This document shows, piece by piece, positions 4,470 to 16,325 of a DNA stretch of 32,000 bases; positions within the stretch are counted from its first letter, which is position 1, and each line of letters begins with the position of its first letter. The translations under genes and the position numbers were made by a program. This stretch comes from Erysipelotrichaceae bacterium MTC7 (GTDB lineage: Bacteria; Bacillota_I; Bacilli_A; Erysipelotrichales; Erysipelotrichaceae). The DNA lies in assembly GCA_001695645.1 (NCBI GenBank), contig LVZN01000007.1:1-32000 (forward strand). The letters are read 5' to 3'. The notes under the pieces were generated by a model, which saw nothing but the letters and a program-made list of their open reading frames with translations, was not told the DNA's origin and made no database searches.

Positions 4470-6917
4470 TTAGCGAAACTTTTTTGCTTTTTTTCGCCAT
4501 ACACCATATGTCCCTAAACATATGGAAAGTATCATGACAAAAACAACGTTCGCTTTATTCGATACATCACCAGCAGCAACACTTGCACTACTTGCTTGTG
4601 TGTTGCTAATTGAAGTACCATCGCTATTCTCTACTACGTGTAAATCGAAAGCTTTGTTGACTGTTACATGTACGGCAATTCGTTGTTGTTGTGTCTGCCC
4701 TATTTCATCCACAACACTTGCCGTAAATGCTAACCTATAGATTCCCCCTTCCTTTCCTACCTTTTGAATGGCAGCAAGTTGATTTGCATTTGCTTCAATG
4801 CTTGCTGCAACGACTTCATTTTGATCACCATCACAAACCGCAACTCCGGCAAATTGAATGGCTTGTGATTGTTGTAACTGCTTTGCCTCATCATATGTAA
4901 GTTCAAAGTCATGACCAGTTAAAACAAAATCCCCAATTTCATCAAAGATCGATGTGCTTTCTCCAAGCACAGTTACCTTGATTTTCTTGCTGACTTCCAC
5001 ATGGTCGACTTTGACAGTGTAAAGCAGTTCATATATGCCTCCTTGTTTGGAAACATTTTTGATGGTTTGCCACTGTGCTTCGTGAACGGTTGTTGCCTGA
5101 CTAGCACCAACAAACTCATGAATTTCACCTTGGCTGTTTCGATCCATCAAGAAGGCATGGACATTGGCATCCGCAATGATTTTTTGTTTGGTTAAACTTT
5201 GTACTTGTTCAAAGGTGTAGACAAGATCGTCTGCTCCAATAATGGCATTTGCTAGTTGATCCATGACACTATGCTTGTTGCTAATCAATACTTGTATTTC
5301 TTTTGTACAAGTTTTTCCATCTTGATTTTGAACGTCATAAGCAATTGTATAAATACCAATGTCACGAAATTCTGGATTTCCTTTAACTACGGTGTAGGTA
5401 ATTTGTTCATCACTTAGTTTGCGTGTTACCGGTGCAAGACCCGGCGTATCGCTAGCTTCTAACCAAGTCGCTTCTATTCGGTGTTTCAAACTATAATCGA
5501 TGTTGGGATTCCCCAATTCATAACGTTGCAGTGGTGCTTGTATTTCAGGTAAACCATGAACTTTTACCACTCGTGTAAACTCTGTGACATACCCTTTTTG
5601 ATCTTCGACTTTGTAAGCCACTTCATAGGTTCCTACGTTGTTGGTATTCACATTATTTTGGACAACTTCAACTTTGTCGATTAAGTTTTGTTGCTTTTCA
5701 TCATAGACTTGCATTCCCTGTAATGGATCAAAAGCATCACCAACATACATGTCCACTGTGTTTGCTTCAAACACTGGACCATCCCACCAAAGGATGGGTT
5801 GTTCAATGGTTCCAATAAACCAGAACGTATCGATGATGTGATAATCAATACAATAACTGTACGACGTTTGACTTGGATCTAACGTTAGTTCTATCTCTGT
5901 TACGTCCTGCTGCTCAATTTGCATCGGAATCGTCGTTCCACTTGGATCTTTTACAAGTGACTTGATGGTTACTTTCCCTGTCTTTTTATCACCAATGACA
6001 TGTTCCGGATTGGTATAACGTTGTCCTTCGTTGTTGTTTGGATCCAAATATGGCTCAGCATCCGAATAAAAACGTGCATAAATGGCCGCTTTCATATTTA
6101 CTAATGGAGAAAAGTCGACAATTTGATTATTGTTTAACCAGACTTGTGGTCGACTACCCGACACTTGGATACTTGCTAGTGGAGACACATCGCTAATCTT
6201 ATTGTTTCCCAGTCCCAAATAACTGATTTTTGTCAAACCAGAGAGTGGACGAATATCACTGATGTTATTGAAGTCTAAAGTTAAACGCTTCAAATCCGGA
6301 AAATTTGCTAAATGTGCAATGTTTTCTAATTTATTGTTTTGTAGATGCAAGGCATATCTCGTTAAACCTCCAGTTACTGGAAGTGTTTGTAAATCTGCAT
6401 CGGTAATGCCATTATTGTTAAGCATCAATTGCTCATCAAGTGCAGGAAAACGTTCCGCTGTAAACAACGACAAATCGTGAATCGCGTTAGTTCCTCGCTT
6501 CCAGTTATTGAACTCCATTGCACGTAAGTTTGGATACATGGCCTCACGCATCGGTTCTAAACTTTGAATGTTGTGGTCATTTAAATATAGCGTTTCAATG
6601 TTTGTCATATATGCAATTCCCGTTAAATCGCTAATGCGCTTACTTGGATCTGCGGTATTGTAACTAATTGTTCTAAGGTTTTTTAAATCGTCTGTACTAA
6701 AGTTTTCTGGTATTTCTGGGCGACTGACAAGATAGTTATAGAAATTCTCATCAGGAACAAGTTCACGTCCACGTTTATTGGTTTCTTGCGCTTGGACTTG
6801 GATATTTTCACTATTTGCTAGTTGATCCGCACTTGTTGATTGCATTAACCATGCAATGCACAAAAATGCACATAGAAAACAAATAAGTAACGTTTTGTTT
6901 TTATTTTGCTTGTTCAT
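4470..6917 (-). CDS. Internalin-like LRR surface protein with several Ig-like (DUF5011-type) domains and a C-terminal TM anchor.
   Basis: 815-aa ORF with RBS AAGGAGGT upstream and signal peptide ...WLMQSTSA/DQ. LRR units are visible (LxxLxLxxNxIxDxxPL, e.g. LTLDFNNISDIRPLSGLTKISYLGLGNNKISDVSPL). Ig-type motifs include VGDAFDPLQG..GTYEVAYKVEDQKG. The C-terminus is a hydrophobic helix followed by WRKKAKKFR. Confidence 0.85.
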   Translation of the reverse strand: MNKQNKNKTLLICFLCAFLCIAWLMQSTSADQLANSENIQVQAQETNKRGRELVPDENFYNYLVSRPEIPENFSTDDLKNLRTISYNTADPSKRISDLTGIAYMTNIETLYLNDHNIQSLEPMREAMYPNLRAMEFNNWKRGTNAIHDLSLFTAERFPALDEQLMLNNNGITDADLQTLPVTGGLTRYALHLQNNKLENIAHLANFPDLKRLTLDFNNISDIRPLSGLTKISYLGLGNNKISDVSPLASIQVSGSRPQVWLNNNQIVDFSPLVNMKAAIYARFYSDAEPYLDPNNNEGQRYTNPEHVIGDKKTGKVTIKSLVKDPSGTTIPMQIEQQDVTEIELTLDPSQTSYSYCIDYHIIDTFWFIGTIEQPILWWDGPVFEANTVDMYVGDAFDPLQGMQVYDEKQQNLIDKVEVVQNNVNTNNVGTYEVAYKVEDQKGYVTEFTRVVKVHGLPEIQAPLQRYELGNPNIDYSLKHRIEATWLEASDTPGLAPVTRKLSDEQITYTVVKGNPEFRDIGIYTIAYDVQNQDGKTCTKEIQVLISNKHSVMDQLANAIIGADDLVYTFEQVQSLTKQKIIADANVHAFLMDRNSQGEIHEFVGASQATTVHEAQWQTIKNVSKQGGIYELLYTVKVDHVEVSKKIKVTVLGESTSIFDEIGDFVLTGHDFELTYDEAKQLQQSQAIQFAGVAVCDGDQNEVVAASIEANANQLAAIQKVGKEGGIYRLAFTASVVDEIGQTQQQRIAVHVTVNKAFDLHVVENSDGTSISNTQASSASVAAGDVSNKANVVFVMILSICLGTYGVWRKKAKKFR

Positions 6918-8109
6918 GTTTACCTCCTTTCTTACGACGTCGATTCATGATAAACAAAACGACGAGTAACAAGGATACGATGAAAGGTATAGCACTTATC
7001 CCCAATCGAAATGGTAGTGAAACATCTGCTCTCATCTTCAATGAAGTAACAAAGTCATAAGAGAAAGTTCCCGCTGATGCAATGATTTCATCGTCATATA
7101 AAGTTAAGTGACTACCTTCTTTAATGTTATCTAAGCGATACGACACGCCTGGAGCTTTTGAAGGTCGCTCACGATCGGTAAAGAAGGCAAAGACAACCGT
7201 ATCTTCAACGATGCGACTAAGATCTAAAGACCATCCTGCAAATGCACGATTGTCCAGTTGTGGATCTTTGATGTCTTGGGCACTTTCCCCGTGATTGACA
7301 ATCCTCTGTTCATACAACGTGTCATCAATGTAGTACGACACCAAGTATTGTTTTAATCGATAGGTTGCATATACGTTTAAATCACTTGTAATTGGTTGTC
7401 CTTGATAGAACTTTGCAGTTCCATCGCTTTGTAAATTAAACCCAAGAAAGACGTGTCCTTCTTTTTGCAATCCATGTAAACTAAGACTTTTGTTGTGTTC
7501 CACATGATGCGTTTGTAATAACGTTGCACCATCATACACTTTTACTTGATGCATTTGGTTTGCACGAAATGCGAAATTTCCCTGGAATGCATGTTCGTAT
7601 GTTTCCGTTGCATCTCCGACCGTAATTCCTTGTGCTCGTACTTGCGTATCCACGCTTATTTTGTTTCGTGAAGAACCTGTTGTTGTAACATCTAGTTCAA
7701 TCACATGTTTTACATGATTTAGTTGCATCGATAATCCAGACTTGAGCAATGCTTGATATTCACTTTGCGTTGCGTTTTTTCCATCAATGCGAAGCACCCC
7801 TTGTGCATACGGCTTGAAGGCAACCCCTTCTTTTTCAAACACCCTTATTCGGGTATCTAAAGATCCTGAACGATTGGCAACTTGAATTTGCAATCGCACT
7901 GTGGAACCATAGGCAATTGATCCAGCACTGGAAAGTTCTTTTTCTTTTCCTGAGGTTTCAATAAGTTTTGCACTTGATGAAAGTTGTAAATCCAAATACG
8001 TTTCAGCAGCAACGACATGTTGTCTAAAGCCAAACAACATCATACTTATCATGGTGAGTATAAGTACGAGTTGTCCTAATGTTTTTTTACGTTTTTTATG
8101 ATTCGACAT
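6901..8109 (-). CDS. Secreted protein with a DUF11-like beta-sandwich, two Listeria-Bacteroides-type repeats and a C-terminal TM anchor.
   Basis: The likely start is ATG at 8109 (MSNHKKRKK...), with GGAG 11 nt upstream; the track start at 8136 looks like an extension. The signal peptide ends VVAA/ET. Motifs seen are GSTVRLQIQVANRSG, GHVFLGFNLQSDGT..VYATY and FAGWSLD. The C-terminus is hydrophobic followed by NRRRKKGGK. The gene overlaps the next gene by 17 nt. Confidence 0.75.
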   Translation of the reverse strand: MSNHKKRKKTLGQLVLILTMISMMLFGFRQHVVAAETYLDLQLSSSAKLIETSGKEKELSSAGSIAYGSTVRLQIQVANRSGSLDTRIRVFEKEGVAFKPYAQGVLRIDGKNATQSEYQALLKSGLSMQLNHVKHVIELDVTTTGSSRNKISVDTQVRAQGITVGDATETYEHAFQGNFAFRANQMHQVKVYDGATLLQTHHVEHNKSLSLHGLQKEGHVFLGFNLQSDGTAKFYQGQPITSDLNVYATYRLKQYLVSYYIDDTLYEQRIVNHGESAQDIKDPQLDNRAFAGWSLDLSRIVEDTVVFAFFTDRERPSKAPGVSYRLDNIKEGSHLTLYDDEIIASAGTFSYDFVTSLKMRADVSLPFRLGISAIPFIVSLLLVVLFIMNRRRKKGGKHEQAK

Positions 8110-8113
8110 TGGC

Positions 8114-9430
8114 TTATTGCTCCACTTGCACAACATACGAAATCATATTTCCCGAAACATCATAGATGGCTACATAAACTTCACCATGAAAGTCATGTTT
8201 GATTTTTCCATCTCTTGGGATTGGCATACGTGTTTCTTGATAGAGTACATACGATGTATCATAATCAATCCCTGATGCTCCATCTTTAAACTGTAAACTT
8301 AAATACCCGTCCGCATATCCAATCTCCAGCATCTCTGGTGCTTTGATATCAATGTTATCGATGGTTACATTACGTGTATCTTTATCGACTTGGATCTTAT
8401 ACGTTCCATTTTCACTAGCAACAAAAGATAAGACATCTTGATCAACTTCAAAATCAATGGCTTTCGCTTCTTTTGATACTTGAATATGGGAATGATCGAC
8501 TTTGTTTTTCAACTTCGCTTTTACTTCTACCTTTTTATTGGTTGGTTCTTGGTGATAACTAACGTCAATAATTTCTGCATCTTGTAGGTGCAAACTTTGA
8601 TACACGACATAGCTCGTGGTGGTTCCTAAACCTAGCACACCAACAATCGCTGCTTTTGAAAGATTGGAAAGTGTTTTCGATGCACCCACAGTCAATGGAA
8701 CAGCTGCTCCAATGGATGCTTTTCCCACATGGACCACCGAATCATAAATTTGCGTTGCTGCATTTGGTGACAATGGTTTTTGTTGCAACAATTCTTTAAA
8801 TATTTGAAAGGCAAAAGGACTAAATACAAAACTGAAGTAACTAAGTGGTGAATATCCACGTTCACTTAATCCTGGCTGAATGACTTTACGCACTCGTTTT
8901 AATCGCGTCTTCACCGTTCCTTCAGGTATTTTCATAATGTACGATATCTCTTTAACAGACAGTCCAACGTAATATTTCAACATACCCACTTCAAAGAATT
9001 TTTCTGGTAATTGATTTAGTTCGCTTTTGATTGCAGCATACACTTCTTTGCTTTCAACTTCGTGAACTTGATTGTTATCAACAACCACCATTTCTTCAAG
9101 ATTGGTGTCTTCTCCAAGTTGTACTTGGCGACTCCGCTTGCGATACAAGGTTTGTGAACTGTTGTAAGCAATTGTAAAAATCCAAGCGTGAAAACTCTTA
9201 GGATGTTTTAACATTTGTATATTTTTGTATACGCTTAAAAACGTTTCTTGTACCACTTCTTCTGCATCTGCTTGATTTTGCATCAATTTTAAACCAAAAT
9301 AATAAATTGGATTTTTGTAGAAATCGTAAATGGCATTAAACGCGTCTACATCACCGTCTTGAAAACGTTCGATGTAACTAACATCCAATTCTTTATGGTC
9401 CCTACTTTTTCCGTTTGTATCCACACTCAT
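8114..9430 (-). CDS. Sigma-70 family (ECF-like) sigma factor fused to a TM helix and a ~155-aa extracytoplasmic beta-sandwich region.
   Basis: Region 2 reads DAEEVVQETFLSVYKNIQMLKHPKSFHAWIFTIAYNSSQTLYRKR. Region 4 reads LPEKFFEVGMLKYYVGLSVKEISYIMKIPEGTVKTRLKRVRKVI. A hydrophobic segment AAIVGVLGLGTTTSYVVY follows, then beta-rich sequence containing NIDIKAPE and DGASGIDYD. A G-rich RBS (GGGGG) precedes the ATG at 9430. Confidence 0.85.
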   Translation of the reverse strand: MSVDTNGKSRDHKELDVSYIERFQDGDVDAFNAIYDFYKNPIYYFGLKLMQNQADAEEVVQETFLSVYKNIQMLKHPKSFHAWIFTIAYNSSQTLYRKRSRQVQLGEDTNLEEMVVVDNNQVHEVESKEVYAAIKSELNQLPEKFFEVGMLKYYVGLSVKEISYIMKIPEGTVKTRLKRVRKVIQPGLSERGYSPLSYFSFVFSPFAFQIFKELLQQKPLSPNAATQIYDSVVHVGKASIGAAVPLTVGASKTLSNLSKAAIVGVLGLGTTTSYVVYQSLHLQDAEIIDVSYHQEPTNKKVEVKAKLKNKVDHSHIQVSKEAKAIDFEVDQDVLSFVASENGTYKIQVDKDTRNVTIDNIDIKAPEMLEIGYADGYLSLQFKDGASGIDYDTSYVLYQETRMPIPRDGKIKHDFHGEVYVAIYDVSGNMISYVVQVEQ

Positions 9431-9475
9431 ACATCAACCCCCGTATTTTGAATTTATAAATACTCACACAATTTT

Positions 9476-10045
9476 TTATTTGCCAATGACAAATAAACCC
9501 TTACTTATAATGTCACTACGTTTTACTGCTCCAAACATTCTTGAATCTCGTGAAACTCTGCGGTTATCACCACAAAGGAAATACTCATCTTCACCTAAAA
9601 CCAGTGGTCCAAAGTCACTGGTAAATTTTTCGATTCCATGGTTGGTTTGTTTACTTTTATAACGTTCATCGAGAAAGTATTCATCGACGACTTCTCCGTT
9701 TATATACAACATGTCATCACGGTATTGAATGGTTTCACCAGGCAAACCGATGATGCGTTTGGTAAGACTCTTTTGTTCCTCATGATCGTACGTTGTAACG
9801 ATATCGAAACGTTCTATGTGCCCAAGATAGCGACTTAAAATACCCGTCAAGCCCATTTCTCCATTTTCTAAGGTTGGATACATACTCGATCCTTCCACAT
9901 AGACAATACGCACAATGCAGGTTAAACAAACATACAAGGCCAAGGTCAATGAAAACACCAGACGCAACAATTTCAACATCTCGAGTTTCCATTTGCTTCT
10001 TTTTATGTCTTTTCGCAATTCCATTTGTCTATTTGATGGACGCAT
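9476..10045 (-). CDS. Type I signal peptidase (S26 family) with an intact Ser/Lys dyad.
   Basis: Conserved boxes are GSSMYPTL (Ser), KRIIGLPGE (Lys) and GDNRRVSRDSR. There is an N-terminal TM segment. The likely start is ATG at 10045 (MRPSNRQ...), with GAAGGTGGTGA upstream; the track start at 10096 is an extension. Confidence 0.9.
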   Translation of the reverse strand: MRPSNRQMELRKDIKRSKWKLEMLKLLRLVFSLTLALYVCLTCIVRIVYVEGSSMYPTLENGEMGLTGILSRYLGHIERFDIVTTYDHEEQKSLTKRIIGLPGETIQYRDDMLYINGEVVDEYFLDERYKSKQTNHGIEKFTSDFGPLVLGEDEYFLCGDNRRVSRDSRMFGAVKRSDIISKGLFVIGK

Positions 10046-10058
10046 ATATTCACCACCT

Positions 10059-10979
10059 TCACACACTGTAATGTTTCCTTCGCTTTCTATACACATAGAT
10101 TCCTGTAACGCCTAAAACGATGGCAAAAATGTGCCACGTTTTTTTACTACCCGTTGGAATGTTTTGTTTGTTTATGTCTTGATCATCAATTACATCTAGT
10201 TGAAGTTGGAAACAGAGCACACCGTTAGACATTGCTTTGTAGGCTCCTGCATCTTCTTTATGATTGATTTCTAGTTGTAAGACTGGTCCACTAGCTATAT
10301 GCGTACGTTGACCAGTGGCATCTTGGTATTCCCAAGTGATTGATTGATCATATGGCAATGTTTCTGTTTGTTTTGTTGGTACTTGTTGCCAAGTTCCATT
10401 TTTGTATTGATAGGTTTCATTTCGACTATAGGAGAGTGCGATTTCGATATGATCACCTATCTTTTTTTGCTGGTATAACATACCTTGTTGTAAGTTGCTT
10501 TCGTCGATTCTTGTCTGATTCAAAAGAATTTGAAGACAATTCCCCTCTTCCATGACGATTTGTTTTACATCCTTACCCAAAACGCTTGCATCAAGTTGTT
10601 TAACATACCATGCGGAGCGTTTTGCTGGAACTTGCATTTTTGCGAATTGTTGGCTTCCAGTAAAGATATCATTTCCCACAAATGTTACATCCTCCTGTAT
10701 CCACAATTCTTGTAGTTCGTTGTTTTGTTTAAATGCTTGTTCAGCAATTGCGCTTACTTTTTTTCCCTTATATGTTGCAGGTATTTTTACAACGGCTTCT
10801 TTGCCTACATAACGTGTGATTTGCACACTTCCATCTGCCAAATCTTGATAATAAAAGGTTTGATCTTGGTGGATGTTTCCAGTTGGCATATGACTGTTAA
10901 TCACTGTGCTTAGGACACAGACACATAGACAACTTAAGCAAAAAAGTTCTTTTAAAAATATCCTTCTCAGTTTATGCAT
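10059..10979 (-). CDS. BspA-type LRR (LRR_5-like) surface protein with a C-terminal TM anchor.
   Basis: Hydrophobic N-terminus. The sequence VKIPATYKGKKVSAIAEQAFKQNNELQELWIQEDVTFVGNDIF is typical of BspA-like repeats. The C-terminus is WHIFAIVLGVTGIYVYRKRRK. The ATG lies 2 nt after the stop of the upstream gene. Confidence 0.7.
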   Translation of the reverse strand: MHKLRRIFLKELFCLSCLCVCVLSTVINSHMPTGNIHQDQTFYYQDLADGSVQITRYVGKEAVVKIPATYKGKKVSAIAEQAFKQNNELQELWIQEDVTFVGNDIFTGSQQFAKMQVPAKRSAWYVKQLDASVLGKDVKQIVMEEGNCLQILLNQTRIDESNLQQGMLYQQKKIGDHIEIALSYSRNETYQYKNGTWQQVPTKQTETLPYDQSITWEYQDATGQRTHIASGPVLQLEINHKEDAGAYKAMSNGVLCFQLQLDVIDDQDINKQNIPTGSKKTWHIFAIVLGVTGIYVYRKRRKHYSV

Positions 10980-10981
10980 TT

Positions 10982-12148
10982 TTATGAATTGTTTTCTTCA
11001 CTTTGTGCTTTTAGATTTTCACCGATGTTCATCTTACCAGCGATCTTCGCACCTTTTTCAATATCAATGAATTTCGCATGGATATCGCCAAGAATCATCG
11101 CCGTACGTGAGAATGAAATCTCACTATCCGCAGTTACATTCCCTTCAATAGAACCGTGAATATCCATTGAGTTTGCTTGCATGTTCCCTTTTACGAACGT
11201 TTCACTGCCGACGTATAAGTCTTGTTCCACGTTTACGTTTCCTGCAATTTTTCCATTTTCTAAACGTAGTGATGCAGCACTAACATCACCTGTAATTAAT
11301 GCATCCTCTGCGATTTCGACGCGTTCCTTACAAATTAAGTTTCCACGAATTTCCCCTTTTACCAATAATGGTGTTGTGACCGTAACATTTCCATCAATCA
11401 CAATCCCTTTGGCAAATACTGAACTTTCTGTTGGCATAGCTGGAATGATTGGTTCCACTGGTGTTTCGTGTACTTCATTTCCTTCTAAGTATTCATCCAC
11501 GCGTTCTTTAAATTTCTCTTTGTATTTCTCGTCGTTAAATTTCATCATGTCTTGTTTTTCCTCAACTTCCGTTTGTTCTTGTTTAACTGTAGCAATCGTT
11601 TGTTTTTCTACACGATCATGTTCCTGTATATCCATGACTTTTACTGCAGTTGGTTGTTTATGTCGCATGGCTACACTTGGCGTGTATGCATTTGCTTGCA
11701 ACAACACTTGTTCCATATCGTTTTGTAAACCATAAATCTTTTCGCCTTCATTTTCGATAAACTCATTGATATATGACAACATTGCATTTGCTTCGTTTAA
11801 GTCATAATCATCAATAGGACGATCGTAAAGCGAAGCCAACATGGTATTGCAACCATCCAACGTTCTTGATAACTCCCTGTAACGAGTATCCAGTTGTTTG
11901 CTTTGCGCTAAGGCTAAGCTATCTTTATCAGTTGCAACCACTTGTTCCAAGTGCTTCCAATGTTTTGAGTCCAGCACATTTGCCAACTCCTCATAGGCAC
12001 TTTTTGACAACGCAAGTTCTTTTATATATTTTGACTTGAGTAATCGTCGTACCAATAAGGTCACAATAAACGTGAGTCCCAATAAAACTAGAAACGTAAC
12101 GATAAAAGGAATGGAAAATATTCCCACTGCTAGAATCAGATATTCCAT
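10982..12148 (-). CDS. Membrane-anchored bactofilin-domain protein: N-terminal TM, helical linker, C-terminal DUF583/bactofilin domain.
   Basis: ATG at 12148 (MEYLILAVG...) is preceded by AAGAAAGGAGAAACT. A ~30-residue hydrophobic stretch is followed by RRLLKSKYIK. The C-terminal ~125 aa, GIVIDGNVTV..VKGEIRGNLIC..ITGDVSA..IAGNVNV..VKGNMQA..IEGNVTA..ILGDIHA..IAGKMNIG, is the bactofilin beta-helix repeat pattern. Confidence 0.8.
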   Translation of the reverse strand: MEYLILAVGIFSIPFIVTFLVLLGLTFIVTLLVRRLLKSKYIKELALSKSAYEELANVLDSKHWKHLEQVVATDKDSLALAQSKQLDTRYRELSRTLDGCNTMLASLYDRPIDDYDLNEANAMLSYINEFIENEGEKIYGLQNDMEQVLLQANAYTPSVAMRHKQPTAVKVMDIQEHDRVEKQTIATVKQEQTEVEEKQDMMKFNDEKYKEKFKERVDEYLEGNEVHETPVEPIIPAMPTESSVFAKGIVIDGNVTVTTPLLVKGEIRGNLICKERVEIAEDALITGDVSAASLRLENGKIAGNVNVEQDLYVGSETFVKGNMQANSMDIHGSIEGNVTADSEISFSRTAMILGDIHAKFIDIEKGAKIAGKMNIGENLKAQSEENNS

Positions 12149-12183
12149 AGTTTCTCCTTTCTTCTTCGCACAATAATAAGTTA

Positions 12184-12210
12184 GTCGCACAAAACGACTT
12201 TTAGGTTCAC
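12184..12210 (-). promoter_or_regulatory. Candidate ECF-type promoter for the seven-gene operon: GTGAAC C-N16-CGAC.
   Basis: The minus strand reads AAAAAGTGAACCTAAAAGTCGTTTTGTGCGACTAAC. GAAC is at 12205-12208 and CGAC at 12184-12187, with a 17-nt spacer. The element lies ~36 nt upstream of the ATG at 12148. It matches the AAC-N16/17-CGT/CGAC architecture of group 4 sigma promoters. Confidence 0.4.
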
Positions 12211-12337: not shown

Positions 12338-12398
12338 GAAAGGACTTCGTGGAAGGAGTAACTATAAGTCATTGCTTATGTATTTGTGAAGTCCTTTC
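12338..12398. other. Perfect 11-bp inverted repeat (GAAAGGACTTC / GAAGTCCTTTC) with a 39-nt loop, in the long region upstream of the operon.
   Basis: The arms are at 12338-12348 and 12388-12398. An inner 5-bp ATAAG/CTTAT pairing is also possible. On the minus strand the repeat is followed by ATTTTAT. Confidence 0.5.
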
Positions 12399-12623
12399 CT
12401 AGATTGTTTGTTTCCATTTATTTGCATCTTATGTAAACAAGGTACACAACACTCGGATTGTAGATTATGGATATTGGTTTTAATGACAATCCGGAATGTT
12501 ATGTAAATCAATCCAAACAAATGAATGACCATGCACAGCCTTGTGTGCGCCCCTTTATACCTCCTATCGCTTCACAATCACTGGTCCTGTGATTTGTAAA
12601 AAAACCTTATCAAACAAAAAAAA

Positions 12624-12695
12624 CTTTGTCTTCTATTGTAAAAACTTTTTTTATTTCAAGTACTTTTATGACATATATCCGTCTTTCTGTGACAT
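12624..12695. promoter_or_regulatory. Conserved ~72-nt intergenic element, copy A. It contains the palindrome AAGTACTT and two direct repeats CTTTyrTGACAT spaced 21 bp apart.
   Basis: It aligns with 15437-15507. TTTCAAGTACTTTTATGACATATATCCGTCTTTCTGTGACAT here matches TTTCAAGTACTTTCATGACATAAATTCGACTTTCTATGACAT there, and flanking CTTGTCT..AAAACTT is also shared. Confidence 0.6.
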
Positions 12696-12790
12696 GCTTA
12701 TTTTCTATACATAGATTAGACTTAATATAGAAATATTTATCATAAAGGAATTCCATTGCGATAAAGTCATAAATTGTCTATGATATAGGT

Positions 12791-13678
12791 ATGAAGAAAA
12801 TACTATTTGTGTACAACCCAGTTGCAGGTAAGGGAATGATCAAAAACAAACTAAGCAAGATCATCGAAGCTTTCTCAGCAAACGATCATGCGCTAGTTAC
12901 CTATGCCACAAAAGCAGAAAACGATGCTTATGATCACATCGTTCAATATGGATCGAACTTTGATCAAATCATATGTAGTGGTGGCGATGGAACCCTAAAT
13001 GAAGTGATCAATGCATGTATGAAAATTGACTATAAGCAAAACCTTGGTTACATTCCAACCGGAACGGTGAATGATTTCTCTAAGTCGATTCAAATGGAAA
13101 CAGATTTAGACAAACTTTTAGACAATTTCAATAGTGAAACAAAAATCCAAACCATTGATGTTGGTAAGTTGGATCAACGCTACTTTGTCTACGTCGCTGC
13201 GTTTGGTAGCATCAGCGAAGTGAGTTACTCCACCCCACAAAACACCAAGAATACAATTGGTAAAGTTGCCTATGTCCTTGAGGGAATCAAGAAAGTCACA
13301 CGCCAAGATAAAATCCATATGCGTATAGCATACGACGATGGTGTGATCGAAGATGATTTTTGCCTTGGTTTAATTACGAATTCCCTATTTGTTGGTGGTA
13401 TCAACTTTTTTAGTGAAGATGAAGTGTCTTTGGATGATGGTTATTTTGAATGCATCTTCATCAAATATCCAAAAGGACCTATCACTTTAAACCAAACCCT
13501 TTTTGATATTACGACGCGCAACTTTGAGCATACTGATAAGATGTACGCATTCAAAACAAAAAAGCTGCACATCACAAGCCGAAAGAAAGTCAAATGGACT
13601 GTTGATGGTGAATATGGTGGCACCTATAAAGATGTTGAAGTCACCAACTATCAAAAGGCTATGACGATTCTAAAATAA
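12791..13678 (+). CDS. Diacylglycerol-kinase-family lipid kinase (DagK/YegS/BmrU-like).
   Basis: 295-aa ORF with the motifs NPVAGKG, the GGDGTLNEV catalytic loop and IPTGTVNDF. It is the only plus-strand gene in the window. Confidence 0.85.
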   Translation: MKKILFVYNPVAGKGMIKNKLSKIIEAFSANDHALVTYATKAENDAYDHIVQYGSNFDQIICSGGDGTLNEVINACMKIDYKQNLGYIPTGTVNDFSKSIQMETDLDKLLDNFNSETKIQTIDVGKLDQRYFVYVAAFGSISEVSYSTPQNTKNTIGKVAYVLEGIKKVTRQDKIHMRIAYDDGVIEDDFCLGLITNSLFVGGINFFSEDEVSLDDGYFECIFIKYPKGPITLNQTLFDITTRNFEHTDKMYAFKTKKLHITSRKKVKWTVDGEYGGTYKDVEVTNYQKAMTILK

Positions 13679-13738: not shown

Positions 13739-15229
13739 CTATTGATGTTTTTTCTTTTTTGCTAGAACTGTCGTTGCTCCTGCAAGTAAAATAAACATGC
13801 CAAATACACTTGTTGTATCACCCGTTGCTGGTCCATTGTTGTTTTCTGGAGCTACAGCTGGTTCTTCTTTTGGCACTGGATTTGGATCCACAATTGGATC
13901 TGGTTCCGGTTTTGTTTCTGGTTCCGGTTTTGGTTCTGGTTCTGGTTGTGGGTCTGGTTTTGTGATATCCTCTTTTACAGTCAACTCACTCATAACGTAC
14001 ATATGTGTATTTCTGAGTTGTTCTTCACCAGGATACGCTGCATCAAATTCACTTGGTGCATGTGAGTTATCAAAACACAGACTATCCGTTTCCGCAAAAG
14101 GTTCCACGAGTTTGTAGTAATAGTTTAAAGGCGGAAGTTCTTGTGCTTTCGAAACAAAGTTTGAACCTTCTATCGTCCACTTGCTATCTTCTGGCAATAA
14201 CACGTTATCCATGTTGATTCCTTCCGTGCTGACCACGTAACCTTCACTTGTTTTTTGCGCAACGTATGCAACTTTATTCGCTTTCACATTGATGGGTTCA
14301 ACCCCTTCAAACTCGCTATCAACAAACAGATAATCCATCAGTGGATAGGCATACACTGCTCCACTATAGTCGTGATAATCAACACGTCCACTTACCAAAT
14401 CAGGTAGATTCAAATACTTGAACTGATTGCCACCAATAAGCAACCATTCCAAATGCACGGCATGTGCCAATAAATTTACATCACTTATGTTTGTGTTGAT
14501 CAAATCCAAAGTATATAAACGCTCCGGACGGAAATTCAATGTTGCAAGTGGCATATCCGCTAAGATGATTTCCTCTGCATTTACACGTCCGTGAATGGTT
14601 GTCAGATTTGGTACACCCATCATAAGAAAGCGAACCAATGGTTGATCATGCTTGATATACAGTGATGTGATGGATGAATTCACATTGATGAAATCTTTCA
14701 TCATAGGTACACCAGAAACGTCAAGTGTATCCGTCTTTACACCATTCATCAACAATGTGATTTTATTTCCTGTATTTTCACCTGTTACAACCTTACTTAC
14801 ATTGGGCGAGTTAATCACCGTTACTTCTAAATCTAAGGATATGTAATATGGCTGATTGTTTGCATCCAAACCAAAAGTTGTTGCTGAACTATGTAAGCCA
14901 GTTAGATCTAATGTTTCATGTTTATATCCATTGATTTTAAGAAACTCCACATCTGTGAAATATTCAATCCCCGAAAAGTCTTGAATGTCGTATTCGTTAC
15001 AATCGAAATAAATCTCTGGATTTTTTACCATTTCGTTTAACTCATCCCCTGTACTGTAATGGTTCAGCACCAGTCTTCGAAACTCTTCATCAGGAAACGT
15101 GGTTGCATTTACTTTCACGGTTCCATAATAGGGTTGCACTTCTGTTTTTAAATTTGTTAGGTTAGGCTGTGGTAGCACAACACCACCCATGATGGATAGC
15201 ATAATACATGCTGTTGTTAGTAATTTCAT
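13739..15229 (-). CDS. LRR surface protein with a PEPEPK-type proline-rich stalk and an xPxTG-like (GPATG) C-terminal sorting signal.
   Basis: RBS GAGGAG and an N-terminal signal peptide. LRR-like units are visible (LDLINTNISDVNLLAHAVHLEWLLIGGNQFKYLNL). The stalk reads PDPQPEPEPKPEPETKPEPDP. The C-terminus is NNGPATGD followed by a hydrophobic stretch and KKKKHQ. Confidence 0.8.
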   Translation of the reverse strand: MKLLTTACIMLSIMGGVVLPQPNLTNLKTEVQPYYGTVKVNATTFPDEEFRRLVLNHYSTGDELNEMVKNPEIYFDCNEYDIQDFSGIEYFTDVEFLKINGYKHETLDLTGLHSSATTFGLDANNQPYYISLDLEVTVINSPNVSKVVTGENTGNKITLLMNGVKTDTLDVSGVPMMKDFINVNSSITSLYIKHDQPLVRFLMMGVPNLTTIHGRVNAEEIILADMPLATLNFRPERLYTLDLINTNISDVNLLAHAVHLEWLLIGGNQFKYLNLPDLVSGRVDYHDYSGAVYAYPLMDYLFVDSEFEGVEPINVKANKVAYVAQKTSEGYVVSTEGINMDNVLLPEDSKWTIEGSNFVSKAQELPPLNYYYKLVEPFAETDSLCFDNSHAPSEFDAAYPGEEQLRNTHMYVMSELTVKEDITKPDPQPEPEPKPEPETKPEPDPIVDPNPVPKEEPAVAPENNNGPATGDTTSVFGMFILLAGATTVLAKKKKHQ

Positions 15230-15436
15230 AATTTCTTATCTCCTCTTCATTTACAAATATCTACTAATTTCCCTTACAATAATGGTCTTTCGATTTTGTT
15301 AGTCACACACGTATAAACATACACCTCCCTGTCAGCTTACGATAACTGATGATCGTACTTCAAAGTATGATGTATATTTTCTAGTTTATTTGACACCACA
15401 CACTTTGATAATATGACATTAGCAAATATGTTTTTT

Positions 15437-15507
15437 CTTGTCTCGAGTAATGAAAACTTATTATTTTTCAAGTACTTTCATGACATAAATTCGACTTTCT
15501 ATGACAT
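15437..15507. promoter_or_regulatory. Conserved ~72-nt intergenic element, copy B, in the same orientation as copy A.
   Basis: See 12624-12695. ATGACAT at 15480 and at 15501 are exactly 21 bp apart. The palindrome AAGTACTT is at 15470-15477. The element lies 208-278 nt upstream of the ATG at 15229. Confidence 0.6.
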
Positions 15508-15560
15508 TTTGATAGAATATATATAATTTATGGATAAAACAATTCGAAATTTAAACAAAA

Positions 15561-15586
15561 AAGATCACAAATTTTACTGTGATCTT
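15561..15586 (-). terminator. Rho-independent terminator of the DUF2971 gene.
   Basis: The minus strand reads AAGATCACA-GTAAAATT-TGTGATCTT followed by TTTTGTTT. The 9-bp perfect stem overlaps the TAA stop. Confidence 0.75.
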
Positions 15587-16325
15587 AGTTACTTTTTTGA
15601 TAGGTATACACACAAGAATTGCAGAGACTTCGATATCGCAACAAACCTTTGAACTTGCTTGGCTCTAGGATTACATCAAGTCCATTATCCATTAACAATT
15701 GCGACAGTTCTTTTTCTTGGGTAAAGTTTGGCCCCGTCATGATACGTATCGATGACAGTAGTTCATGATTTACTGGTAAAGCAATATGTGTTGCATCTTG
15801 TATCGTTTTGAATGTTGCATGTAAACGCACTTCGCTTTCATATTCCCAAGCCACATGTTTAATGTAGCCAGTCAACATGTGATGATCATTTCTAAAATCT
15901 TTGATCTGCGTATGCAAAATTCGTTCTTGACGAGTACGAATGTTATGGTCACTTACATAGCCAATATCATGCACTTGCAGCTTTGGCAACTCTGTTGTTT
16001 TTTGATAAGAAATTTTCCCCTCTACAAATTGGACACTTTCGACTTCCTTTATATTTGCTAACCAAGCAAATAACGCTTTTCTTGGAATTTGCAGACGAAT
16101 GGCTTGGTTGTTTGGAATTCCATACAAGCCCCACATTGCCATGTTTTCTTTGATTGTTGCACTAAAACACAAGAGAAAGGTTTTCTTCCATTCTTCTGGA
16201 TTTCCTTGATACATACACTCTTCTTGGTCATTCATGCTTTCATTATCACCACGCGATAAAAACCAACGTTGACTAGAGATGATATTTTGTAATCCCTCCA
16301 GTGTTGTATAGTGTGTAAATGTCAT
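15585..16325 (-). CDS. DUF2971-like protein of unknown function.
   Basis: 246-aa ORF with RBS GGGAGAA. The N-terminus FTHYTTLEGLQNIISSQRWFLSRGDNESMNDQEE resembles the DUF2971 signature (HYTs..al..Il.s..l..s....lND..E). The assignment is from memory of the family pattern only. Confidence 0.55.
   Translation of the reverse strand: MTFTHYTTLEGLQNIISSQRWFLSRGDNESMNDQEECMYQGNPEEWKKTFLLCFSATIKENMAMWGLYGIPNNQAIRLQIPRKALFAWLANIKEVESVQFVEGKISYQKTTELPKLQVHDIGYVSDHNIRTRQERILHTQIKDFRNDHHMLTGYIKHVAWEYESEVRLHATFKTIQDATHIALPVNHELLSSIRIMTGPNFTQEKELSQLLMDNGLDVILEPSKFKGLLRYRSLCNSCVYTYQKSN

Follow-up and report, generated by a model that had tools for sequence, protein, structure and literature searches.

Operator pairs of the LytTR type, such as those of AgrA P2/P3 and the ComE, BlpR and PlnC boxes, are built from two imperfect direct repeats of ~9–10 bp that are separated by a 12–13 bp spacer, giving a centre-to-centre distance of 21–22 bp, and in A/T-rich promoter regions they overlap a weak -35 hexamer or immediately precede it. 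The cognate LytTR-domain regulator tends to be encoded close by. The consensus of the LytTR box is ACAGTTAAG for AgrA and ACAnTTCAG for ComE, while OmpR/PhoB-type sites have a periodicity of 10–11 bp. Activator and repressor sites, along with UP-like A/T tracts, are usually positioned upstream of the core promoter hexamers, and in Firmicutes sigma-A promoters that depend on an activator or an UP element such a tract precedes a TTGACA-like box. Phylogenetic footprints and lineage regulon motifs (e.g., those in RegPrecise) are short conserved blocks upstream of orthologous genes, and BOX, RUP, REP and Correia-type MITEs are ~100-nt non-coding sequences that occur in more than one copy, in intergenic positions beside variable genes.

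The window, by which we mean the whole stretch of 32,000 nt that was analyzed, contains two copies of a module of ~116 nt, copy A (12604–12719) and copy B (15416–15531), which are homologs in the same orientation on the plus strand. A repeat search paired 12626–12718 with 15438–15530 on the same strand (93 nt, 73%), and a BLAST comparison of the two copies produced one significant HSP that joined 12641–12695 to 15453–15507 (55 nt, 85.5%, E = 1e-14). We refer to this 55-nt segment, which reads AAAACTTTTTTTATTTCAAGTACTTTTATGACATATATCCGTCTTTCTGTGACAT in copy A, as the core. A 41-nt degenerate core pattern with up to three mismatches allowed matched the window at copies A and B only and had no matches in 100 shuffles. 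The flanks of the two cores (37 nt on the left and 24 nt on the right) have 31 in-register matches in 61 positions, a value reached by only 0.017% of other window offsets, and over 92 positions of the module 65 are common to the two copies. These results agree with a preliminary description of this DNA, in which 12624–12695 had been aligned with 15437–15507 in the same orientation with a core of about 85% identity, and they extend the homology past both of those segments. The difference in identity between the core (85%) and the flanks (~51%) would mean either that constraint is heterogeneous along the module or that there has been local gene conversion.

Pfam searches gave the following order of genes in the window, from left to right: a minus-strand surface-protein operon that extends to ~12190, copy A, dagK on the plus strand, a gene for a 496-aa protein on the minus strand, copy B, and the DUF2971 and BioY genes, both on the minus strand. 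The operon encodes surface proteins of the pectate-lyase-like/Ig-like, LRR and Listeria-Bacteroides repeat types, along with a 438-aa ECF sigma factor, a signal peptidase and a bactofilin-domain protein. Copy A is upstream of dagK (12791–13678), the product of which is a lipid kinase of the DagK/YegS/BmrU family (295 aa; Pfam DAGK_cat and YegS_C) with 84% identity to its counterpart in Breznakia sp. PH1-1. This identity assigns the window to a species of Breznakia (Erysipelotrichaceae).

PH1-1 (GCA_029893515.1) also has a module at the corresponding position, in front of its orthologous dagK-family gene (locus L001, positions 9910–10001). The comparison of modules is thus one of three sequences, two of which are from one genome. 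Copy A and the PH1-1 module are identical at 66 of 92 positions without gaps (72%; p = 1e-12 against a neutral identity of 35%). The neutral value is that of the four-fold degenerate sites of dagK, where 28 of 79 (35%) are identical in the window and PH1-1, and since ~30% is expected at random, this background is saturated. Most of the remaining ~600-nt upstream region cannot be aligned between the two. The identity of the module, set against the saturated neutral sites of dagK and the unalignable DNA around it, therefore demonstrates purifying selection at the DNA level. The genes divergent from dagK are not homologous in the window and PH1-1. As dagK and the module are homologous while the divergent neighbour is unrelated, the module travels with dagK and not with the adhesin operon, and the link between copy A and surface-protein or adhesin genes that had been drawn earlier is not supported.

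The dagK unit and ~450 nt of DNA upstream of it form an island of homology between the window and PH1-1, with unrelated flanking genes on both sides. In the window this unit borders the adhesin operon on the 5' side of the latter; in PH1-1 its neighbours are a fatty-acid synthesis cluster and a giant pectate-lyase-like/Ig-like adhesin gene, of which it borders the 3' end.

The blocks that are invariant in copy A, copy B and PH1-1 are AC-TTA-CAA, TTGTCT (12626–12631 in copy A), part of a T-tract, TTTCAAGT (12654–12661), TGACAT box 1 (12669–12674), CTTTCT (12683–12688), and the GACA of TGACAT box 2 (12690–12695). The distal block ACCTTATCAA (12604–12613) is the same in PH1-1 and reads ACATTAGCAA in copy B; its minus strand gives the -35-like hexamer TTGATA. 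TTGTCT is an inverted GACA box and its centre is 43 bp upstream of that of the first TGACAT. With this inverted box and the two direct ones, the GACA-type boxes number three, and their centre-to-centre distances of 43 and 21 bp place them on one helical face. In the core, 35 of the 55 positions are invariant in the three sequences, and the lineage-specific changes number one in copy A, seven in copy B and 12 in PH1-1, with none otherwise shared. All 20 of these substitutions fall outside TTTCAAGT, TGACAT, CTTTCT and GACA.

The short words that were stressed in the preliminary description are indeed in both window copies. The palindrome AAGTACTT is present at 12658–12665 and 15470–15477, and the TGACAT cores are 21 bp apart in both copies, although each begins one base from the coordinate first given (12669/12690 in copy A and 15481/15502 in copy B, where the boxes span 15481–15486 and 15502–15507). 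Each copy had also been credited with two units of the form CTTT(y)(r)TGACAT, which is correct for the first unit of each, but the second has one extra base (CTTTCTrTGACAT). The palindrome and the equal pair of TGACAT words are, however, not what selection keeps. The PH1-1 module retains TTGTCT, TTTCAAGT, TGACAT, CTTTCT and GACA and has neither the palindrome, in place of which is AAGTCCGT, nor the second full TGACAT, in place of which is CGACAA. Its first repeat unit is CGTTTGTGACAT and its second is TCTTTCTACGACAA, with the 21-bp spacing retained. None of these words stands out by itself: TGACAT is not enriched in the window (23 occurrences against 31 expected), and both the TGACAT-N15-TGACAT pair and the palindrome are within chance (9 and 6 of 100 shuffles, respectively). 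The significance of the module is in its long homology and not in such short words. An additional TGACAT is located at 15414–15419, in the left flank of copy B and 67 bp upstream of its box 1; copy A has CCTTAT at this position, and there is no counterpart in PH1-1.

We put the probability at about one half that this is a lineage-specific, double-stranded DNA regulatory module upstream of the dagK/YegS-family gene in one Breznakia sub-lineage, with copy B as its paralog. Protein binding, the promoter assignments and the direction of action are what we infer from the sequences. The conserved blocks, which cover ~90 bp (ACCTTATCAA, TTGTCT, the T-tract, TTTCAAGT, TGACAT, CTTTCT and GACA), would be bound by one DNA-binding protein or by several, in the form of an oligomeric regulator or of a regulator that acts along with the alpha subunit of RNA polymerase on the T-tract. 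Binding would in turn govern rightward transcription from a start site a short distance downstream. Copy A would then be a regulated upstream promoter whose activity adds to, or modulates, that of a proximal dagK promoter, which is conserved and probably gives a leaderless mRNA. As for copy B, which keeps every invariant block and evolves faster, it would place either the orphan gene or a short rightward transcript under the same regulator, or it may be decaying.

The proximal promoter-like site of dagK, P1 (12756–12784, plus strand), has the form TTGCGA-17-TATGAT. Similarly, PH1-1 has TTGCTA-17-TATGAT, equally far from its ATG, and the last 20 nt before the start codon are nearly identical in the two. 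Based on the fact that P1 ends 6 nt before the ATG, and that there is no clear Shine-Dalgarno sequence, dagK mRNA from this promoter would probably be leaderless. The window and PH1-1 are not alike in how far this promoter is from the module, the difference being 33 nt.

Each window copy is also followed directly by promoter-like hexamers, which are in register (+56 and +58 relative to the anchor) and for which the second GACA box is the -35-like element (GTGACA in copy A and ATGACA in copy B). In copy A the candidate sigma-A-type promoter P2 (12689–12717, plus strand) has the form GTGACA-17-TAGATT. In copy B, two rightward sites are contained in 15491–15527, TCGACT-16-TG-n-TAGAAT (-10 at 15513–15518) and ATGACA-15-TATAAT (-10 at 15522–15527). 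All of these are consensus matches only, and P2 is in register with copy B and not with PH1-1, where a 6-nt deletion or indel puts TAGATT 11 nt from CGACA. Promoter scans of both strands detected no -35/-10 pair that is conserved in register in copies A and B and PH1-1; on the minus strand there are conserved TTGAAA and TTGATA hexamers, with no -10 in register. The module is like the activator- or UP-element-dependent sigma-A promoters in having the A/T-tract AAAAACTTTTTTTATTT upstream of a TTGACA-like box (aTGACA/gTGACA) and, in both window copies, -10-like hexamers 15–17 bp downstream. It differs from them in that its -35 and -10 are out of register in PH1-1 and its best conserved bases (TTTCAAGT and CTTTCT) are not promoter hexamers. 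As judged from these candidate sites, the best conserved blocks are upstream of the core promoter hexamers and not within them. A promoter for the ECF sigma factor of the neighbouring operon was also considered and rejected, based on the lack of a conserved GAAC-N16/17-CGTC in the module; GTAC-N16-CGTC/CGAC is present in copies A and B only.

The preliminary description had likened the repeats to tandem-dimer sites of the LytTR or OmpR type. There is a resemblance to the LytTR operator pairs in that the window copies have imperfect direct repeats (ACTTTyATGACAT and TCTTTCTrTGACAT) with a centre-to-centre distance of 21 bp, which is kept in PH1-1, and these lie in an A/T-rich region at a putative weak -35. 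If positions are counted from the candidate -10 hexamers, box 2 would overlap the -35, with its centre near -30, and box 1 would lie near -51. However, box 2 would then be on the -35 instead of upstream of it, and the second repeat is not conserved at the orthologous promoter, where it is CGACAA and keeps only GACA. In addition, TGACAT differs from the LytTR consensus sequences, neither copy A nor copy B matched the AgrA or ComE box with up to one third mismatches, and the conserved blocks of the module reach 60 bp further upstream. The 10–11 bp periodicity of OmpR/PhoB-type sites is absent, as the repeats are 21 bp apart with no box at the intermediate position. An equal tandem-dimer pair is thus not supported, whereas the more general proposal of a protein-binding site with helically phased boxes fits the conservation at the DNA level and the negative RNA and coding tests described below.

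As had been noted previously, no regulator of these types is encoded in the window. Pfam scans detected no response regulator or LytTR protein in its 32 kb, and the same is true of the 21-kb PH1-1 locus, so that there is no LytTR gene beside the PH1-1 ortholog. A 151-aa neighbour in PH1-1 was checked as a possible hidden LytTR protein and is not one. Another Breznakia genome (GCA_029504775.1; locus L014, positions 1–1003) has a stand-alone LytTR-domain protein of 151 aa that adjoins a LiaF-TM membrane protein, a pair resembling a LytTR regulatory system; the genus thus has regulators of this type, although not in the vicinity of the module. Scans with the WalR, PhoP and CiaR consensus sequences gave no aligned match, and none of 17 regulator or sigma factor motifs (CodY, cre, WalR, PhoP, CiaR, TnrA, Rex, Crp/Fnr, CtsR, PlcR, Fur, PerR, generic ECF, ECF41, AgrA and ComE) occurred at aligned positions in all three copies. 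In the literature we found nothing relevant on TGACAT direct repeats or on gene regulation in Breznakia.

Copy B has different surroundings. It is situated between the gene for the 496-aa protein (13739–15229, minus strand), whose start is ~210 nt to its left, and the DUF2971 gene (15585–16325, minus strand), which is convergent and has the BioY gene beyond it. The 496-aa protein is an orphan of secreted or surface type, for which a search of 5.8 billion proteins yielded no homolog at E ≤ 1e-5, and has a signal-like N-terminus, a Pro/Glu-rich spacer and an anchor-like hydrophobic sequence at its C-terminus. There is no rightward gene for copy B to control: the hairpin terminator of the DUF2971 gene (15561–15586) is 30 nt to the right of copy B, and the 3' end of this convergent gene is 55 nt away. 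Possible roles of copy B are an effect on the orphan gene, which starts 210 nt to the left, and the production of a short rightward transcript that ends at the 15561–15586 hairpin; alternatively, it could be in decay. Midpoint rooting places the split of copies A and B after the species split, and copy B is probably a lineage-specific addition. The excess of changes in its core relative to that of copy A (seven against one; one-sided p = 0.035) fits relaxed constraint. None of these seven changes is in an invariant block and the flanks are more diverged than the core, and hence the core of copy B (15453–15507) would either be constrained still, to a lesser degree than that of copy A, or have been homogenized recently by gene conversion.

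Two alternative readings assign the conservation to a product of the module. According to one, the module acts as RNA, as the 5' leader of dagK, possibly with ACAUAUAUC pairing with the start region GAUAUAGGU, and copy B is an sRNA that ends at the 15561–15586 hairpin. The preliminary description had proposed a hairpin with one compensatory change, and the change (G-C versus A-T between copies A and B) is real; moreover, the flank of box 1 is complementary to the dagK start region in both species, and copy B is followed by promoter-like hexamers and then by a hairpin and a T-run. The hairpin itself did not survive scrutiny, as it consists of a 20-nt loop on a 5-bp A/U stem whose pairing is achieved equally well in 58 of 500 shuffles and is out of register in PH1-1. 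The folding of the module was no better than that of shuffles for either strand of the three copies (z from -0.7 to +1.2, with values of +1.0, -0.7 and +1.2), and was similar when the dagK start was included (z = -1.0 and +0.7). Furthermore, the consensus fold of the three copies is almost without energy (-1.3 kcal/mol), there was no match in an Rfam search (gathering threshold and E ≤ 10), the complementarity is between AT-repeat sequences with no compensatory change and a mismatch gained in PH1-1, and no conserved promoter-like site lies upstream of the module. We regard this RNA reading as very unlikely. Even less credible, to the point of being dismissed for practical purposes, is that the module encodes a small protein (frame ..FFKYFxDIxxxFxD..). 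The same frame is open in copies A and B and PH1-1, with stops at aligned positions, and the difference in length between copy A and PH1-1 past the core is 6 nt, which preserves the frame. Nevertheless, an open frame of 36 codons, one of six, is not unusual in T-rich DNA, no copy has a Shine-Dalgarno sequence, and PH1-1 has no canonical start codon near the conserved part. The substitutions per codon position (11/8/8 for copies A and B and 5/11/10 for copy A and PH1-1) and the ratios of synonymous to non-synonymous changes (2:17, 2:12 and 3:20) indicate no selection at the protein level. As the RNA and coding tests were all negative, the constraint acts on the DNA sequence itself.

The other alternatives concern the origin of the copies. 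The module might be a member of a family of dispersed short repeats (MITE/REP-like, or the arm region of a recombination site) whose proximity to genes is incidental. Two copies in 32 kb and one in the 21 kb of a relative would be compatible with ~100 copies per genome, both window copies are at borders between conserved and lineage-specific genes, and several short helically phased boxes over ~90 bp may resemble arrays of arm-type sites. Like the BOX, RUP, REP and Correia-type elements, it is a non-coding, intergenic sequence of ~100 nt with more than one copy beside variable genes, but unlike them it has no inverted termini and no stable stem-loop, and its dagK copy is orthologously conserved. 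Maintenance by selection across saturated divergence is unexpected for a selfish repeat, and no recombinase gene is nearby. Nor were further copies found: a profile HMM of the three copies detected no other in the window, the PH1-1 locus and six other Erysipelotrichaceae loci (~130 kb of Breznakia/Erysipelotrichaceae DNA), the exact pattern had only chance-level matches in JGI metagenomes (23 in 241 million records, with 38–45/96 identity) and in IMG/VR (4), where the resemblance to copy A at positions other than the fixed ones did not exceed background, and BLAST gave no match in plasmid and phage collections. A dispersed repeat is thus an improbable explanation. Of greater weight, and possible although we doubt it, is the proposal that only copy A is functional and that copy B is the decaying by-product of a local partial duplication or gene-conversion tract, with no role of its own, possibly tied to the rearrangement that brought in the orphan gene. 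Consistent with this are the seven lineage-specific core changes, the orientation of copy B toward the 3' end of a convergent gene, the orphan status of the adjoining 496-aa gene, and the fact that 12 of the 13 core positions at which copy A differs from PH1-1 are common to copies A and B, as would follow from a split after speciation. In the sole relative of the DUF2971 gene, on a 1.9-kb contig with BioY-DUF2971 synteny, there is also no module within 290 nt after DUF2971. A recent neutral duplicate, however, would be expected to be uniformly similar to its source, and none of the seven changes is in an invariant block, although gene conversion limited to the core could mimic such a pattern.

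More distant dagK homologs (44–49% identity) adjoin a peptidase U32 gene and have upstream regions of 50–100 nt with ordinary Shine-Dalgarno sequences (GAGG/AAGGAG ribosome-binding sites) and no module. The exact pattern had 11 matches in the GTDB representative genomes, all in unrelated taxa, and as the known PH1-1 copy was not among them this search is uninformative on Breznakia. That scan returned no Breznakia contig at all, though the pattern matches PH1-1 exactly, and the collection evidently lacks or masks the lineage.

Returning to the reading of the module as a double-stranded regulatory element, it is most likely an uncharacterized regulatory footprint of a familiar kind, that is, an ordinary lineage-restricted cis element. 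Like phylogenetic footprints and the regulon motifs of RegPrecise, it consists of short blocks conserved upstream of orthologs over a saturated background, with a second genomic instance; unlike them, it is known from only three instances and lacks a defined cognate regulator or wider regulon. A more elaborate and rather improbable version is that the module is a portable operator-promoter cassette of a lineage-specific regulator, with three GACA boxes, that was copied beside a new orphan surface-protein gene, a case, caught in the act, of regulatory rewiring through the copying of ~100 bp of control DNA. If this were true, a membrane-lipid kinase and a new surface protein would be co-regulated. 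Should the module bind a regulator, it would mark a small regulon in a barely studied genus of insect and animal guts, and its 55-bp core would be a bait for the protein that regulates a lipid kinase gene of the YegS/DagK family; little is known of how Firmicutes regulate genes of this class. Copy B, given its orphan surface-protein neighbour, could be an example of the way in which control regions are gained by new genes. The module does not bear on any long-standing open question.

Some features to the left of copy A are of separate interest. The ECF sigma factor gene (8114–9430, minus strand) encodes a C-terminal extension of ~250 aa and belongs to an operon (4470–12190) with signal peptidase I, a bactofilin-domain membrane protein and LRR/Ig-like surface proteins, which is an unusual combination of genes. 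Just upstream of the bactofilin-domain gene, at 12184–12208 on the minus strand, there is an ECF-type promoter-like sequence, GAAC-N17-CGAC, which overlaps an inverted repeat, AGTCG-N7-CGACT (12183–12199). This motif is a candidate for an autoregulated promoter of the operon's 438-aa ECF sigma factor. The bactofilin-domain gene is listed with a GTG start at 12190, but its true start is probably the ATG near 12148, which has GGAG ahead of it.

Approximately 260 nt to the left of copy A there is a long-range hairpin (12338–12398; GAAAGGACTTC ... GAAGTCCTTTC) with 11 perfect pairs. Its position is conserved in PH1-1 (L001, positions 9652–9735), with a compensatory change from A-T to C-G, and a mismatch on the plus strand is a G-U pair on the minus strand. 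The folding z for the minus strand is -4.4 in the window and -2.8 in PH1-1. The loop has an unpaired, anti-Shine-Dalgarno-like ACUCCUU and a U-rich stretch follows. These features might mark a small RNA or leader transcribed from the minus strand, of which the hairpin would form the 3' part.
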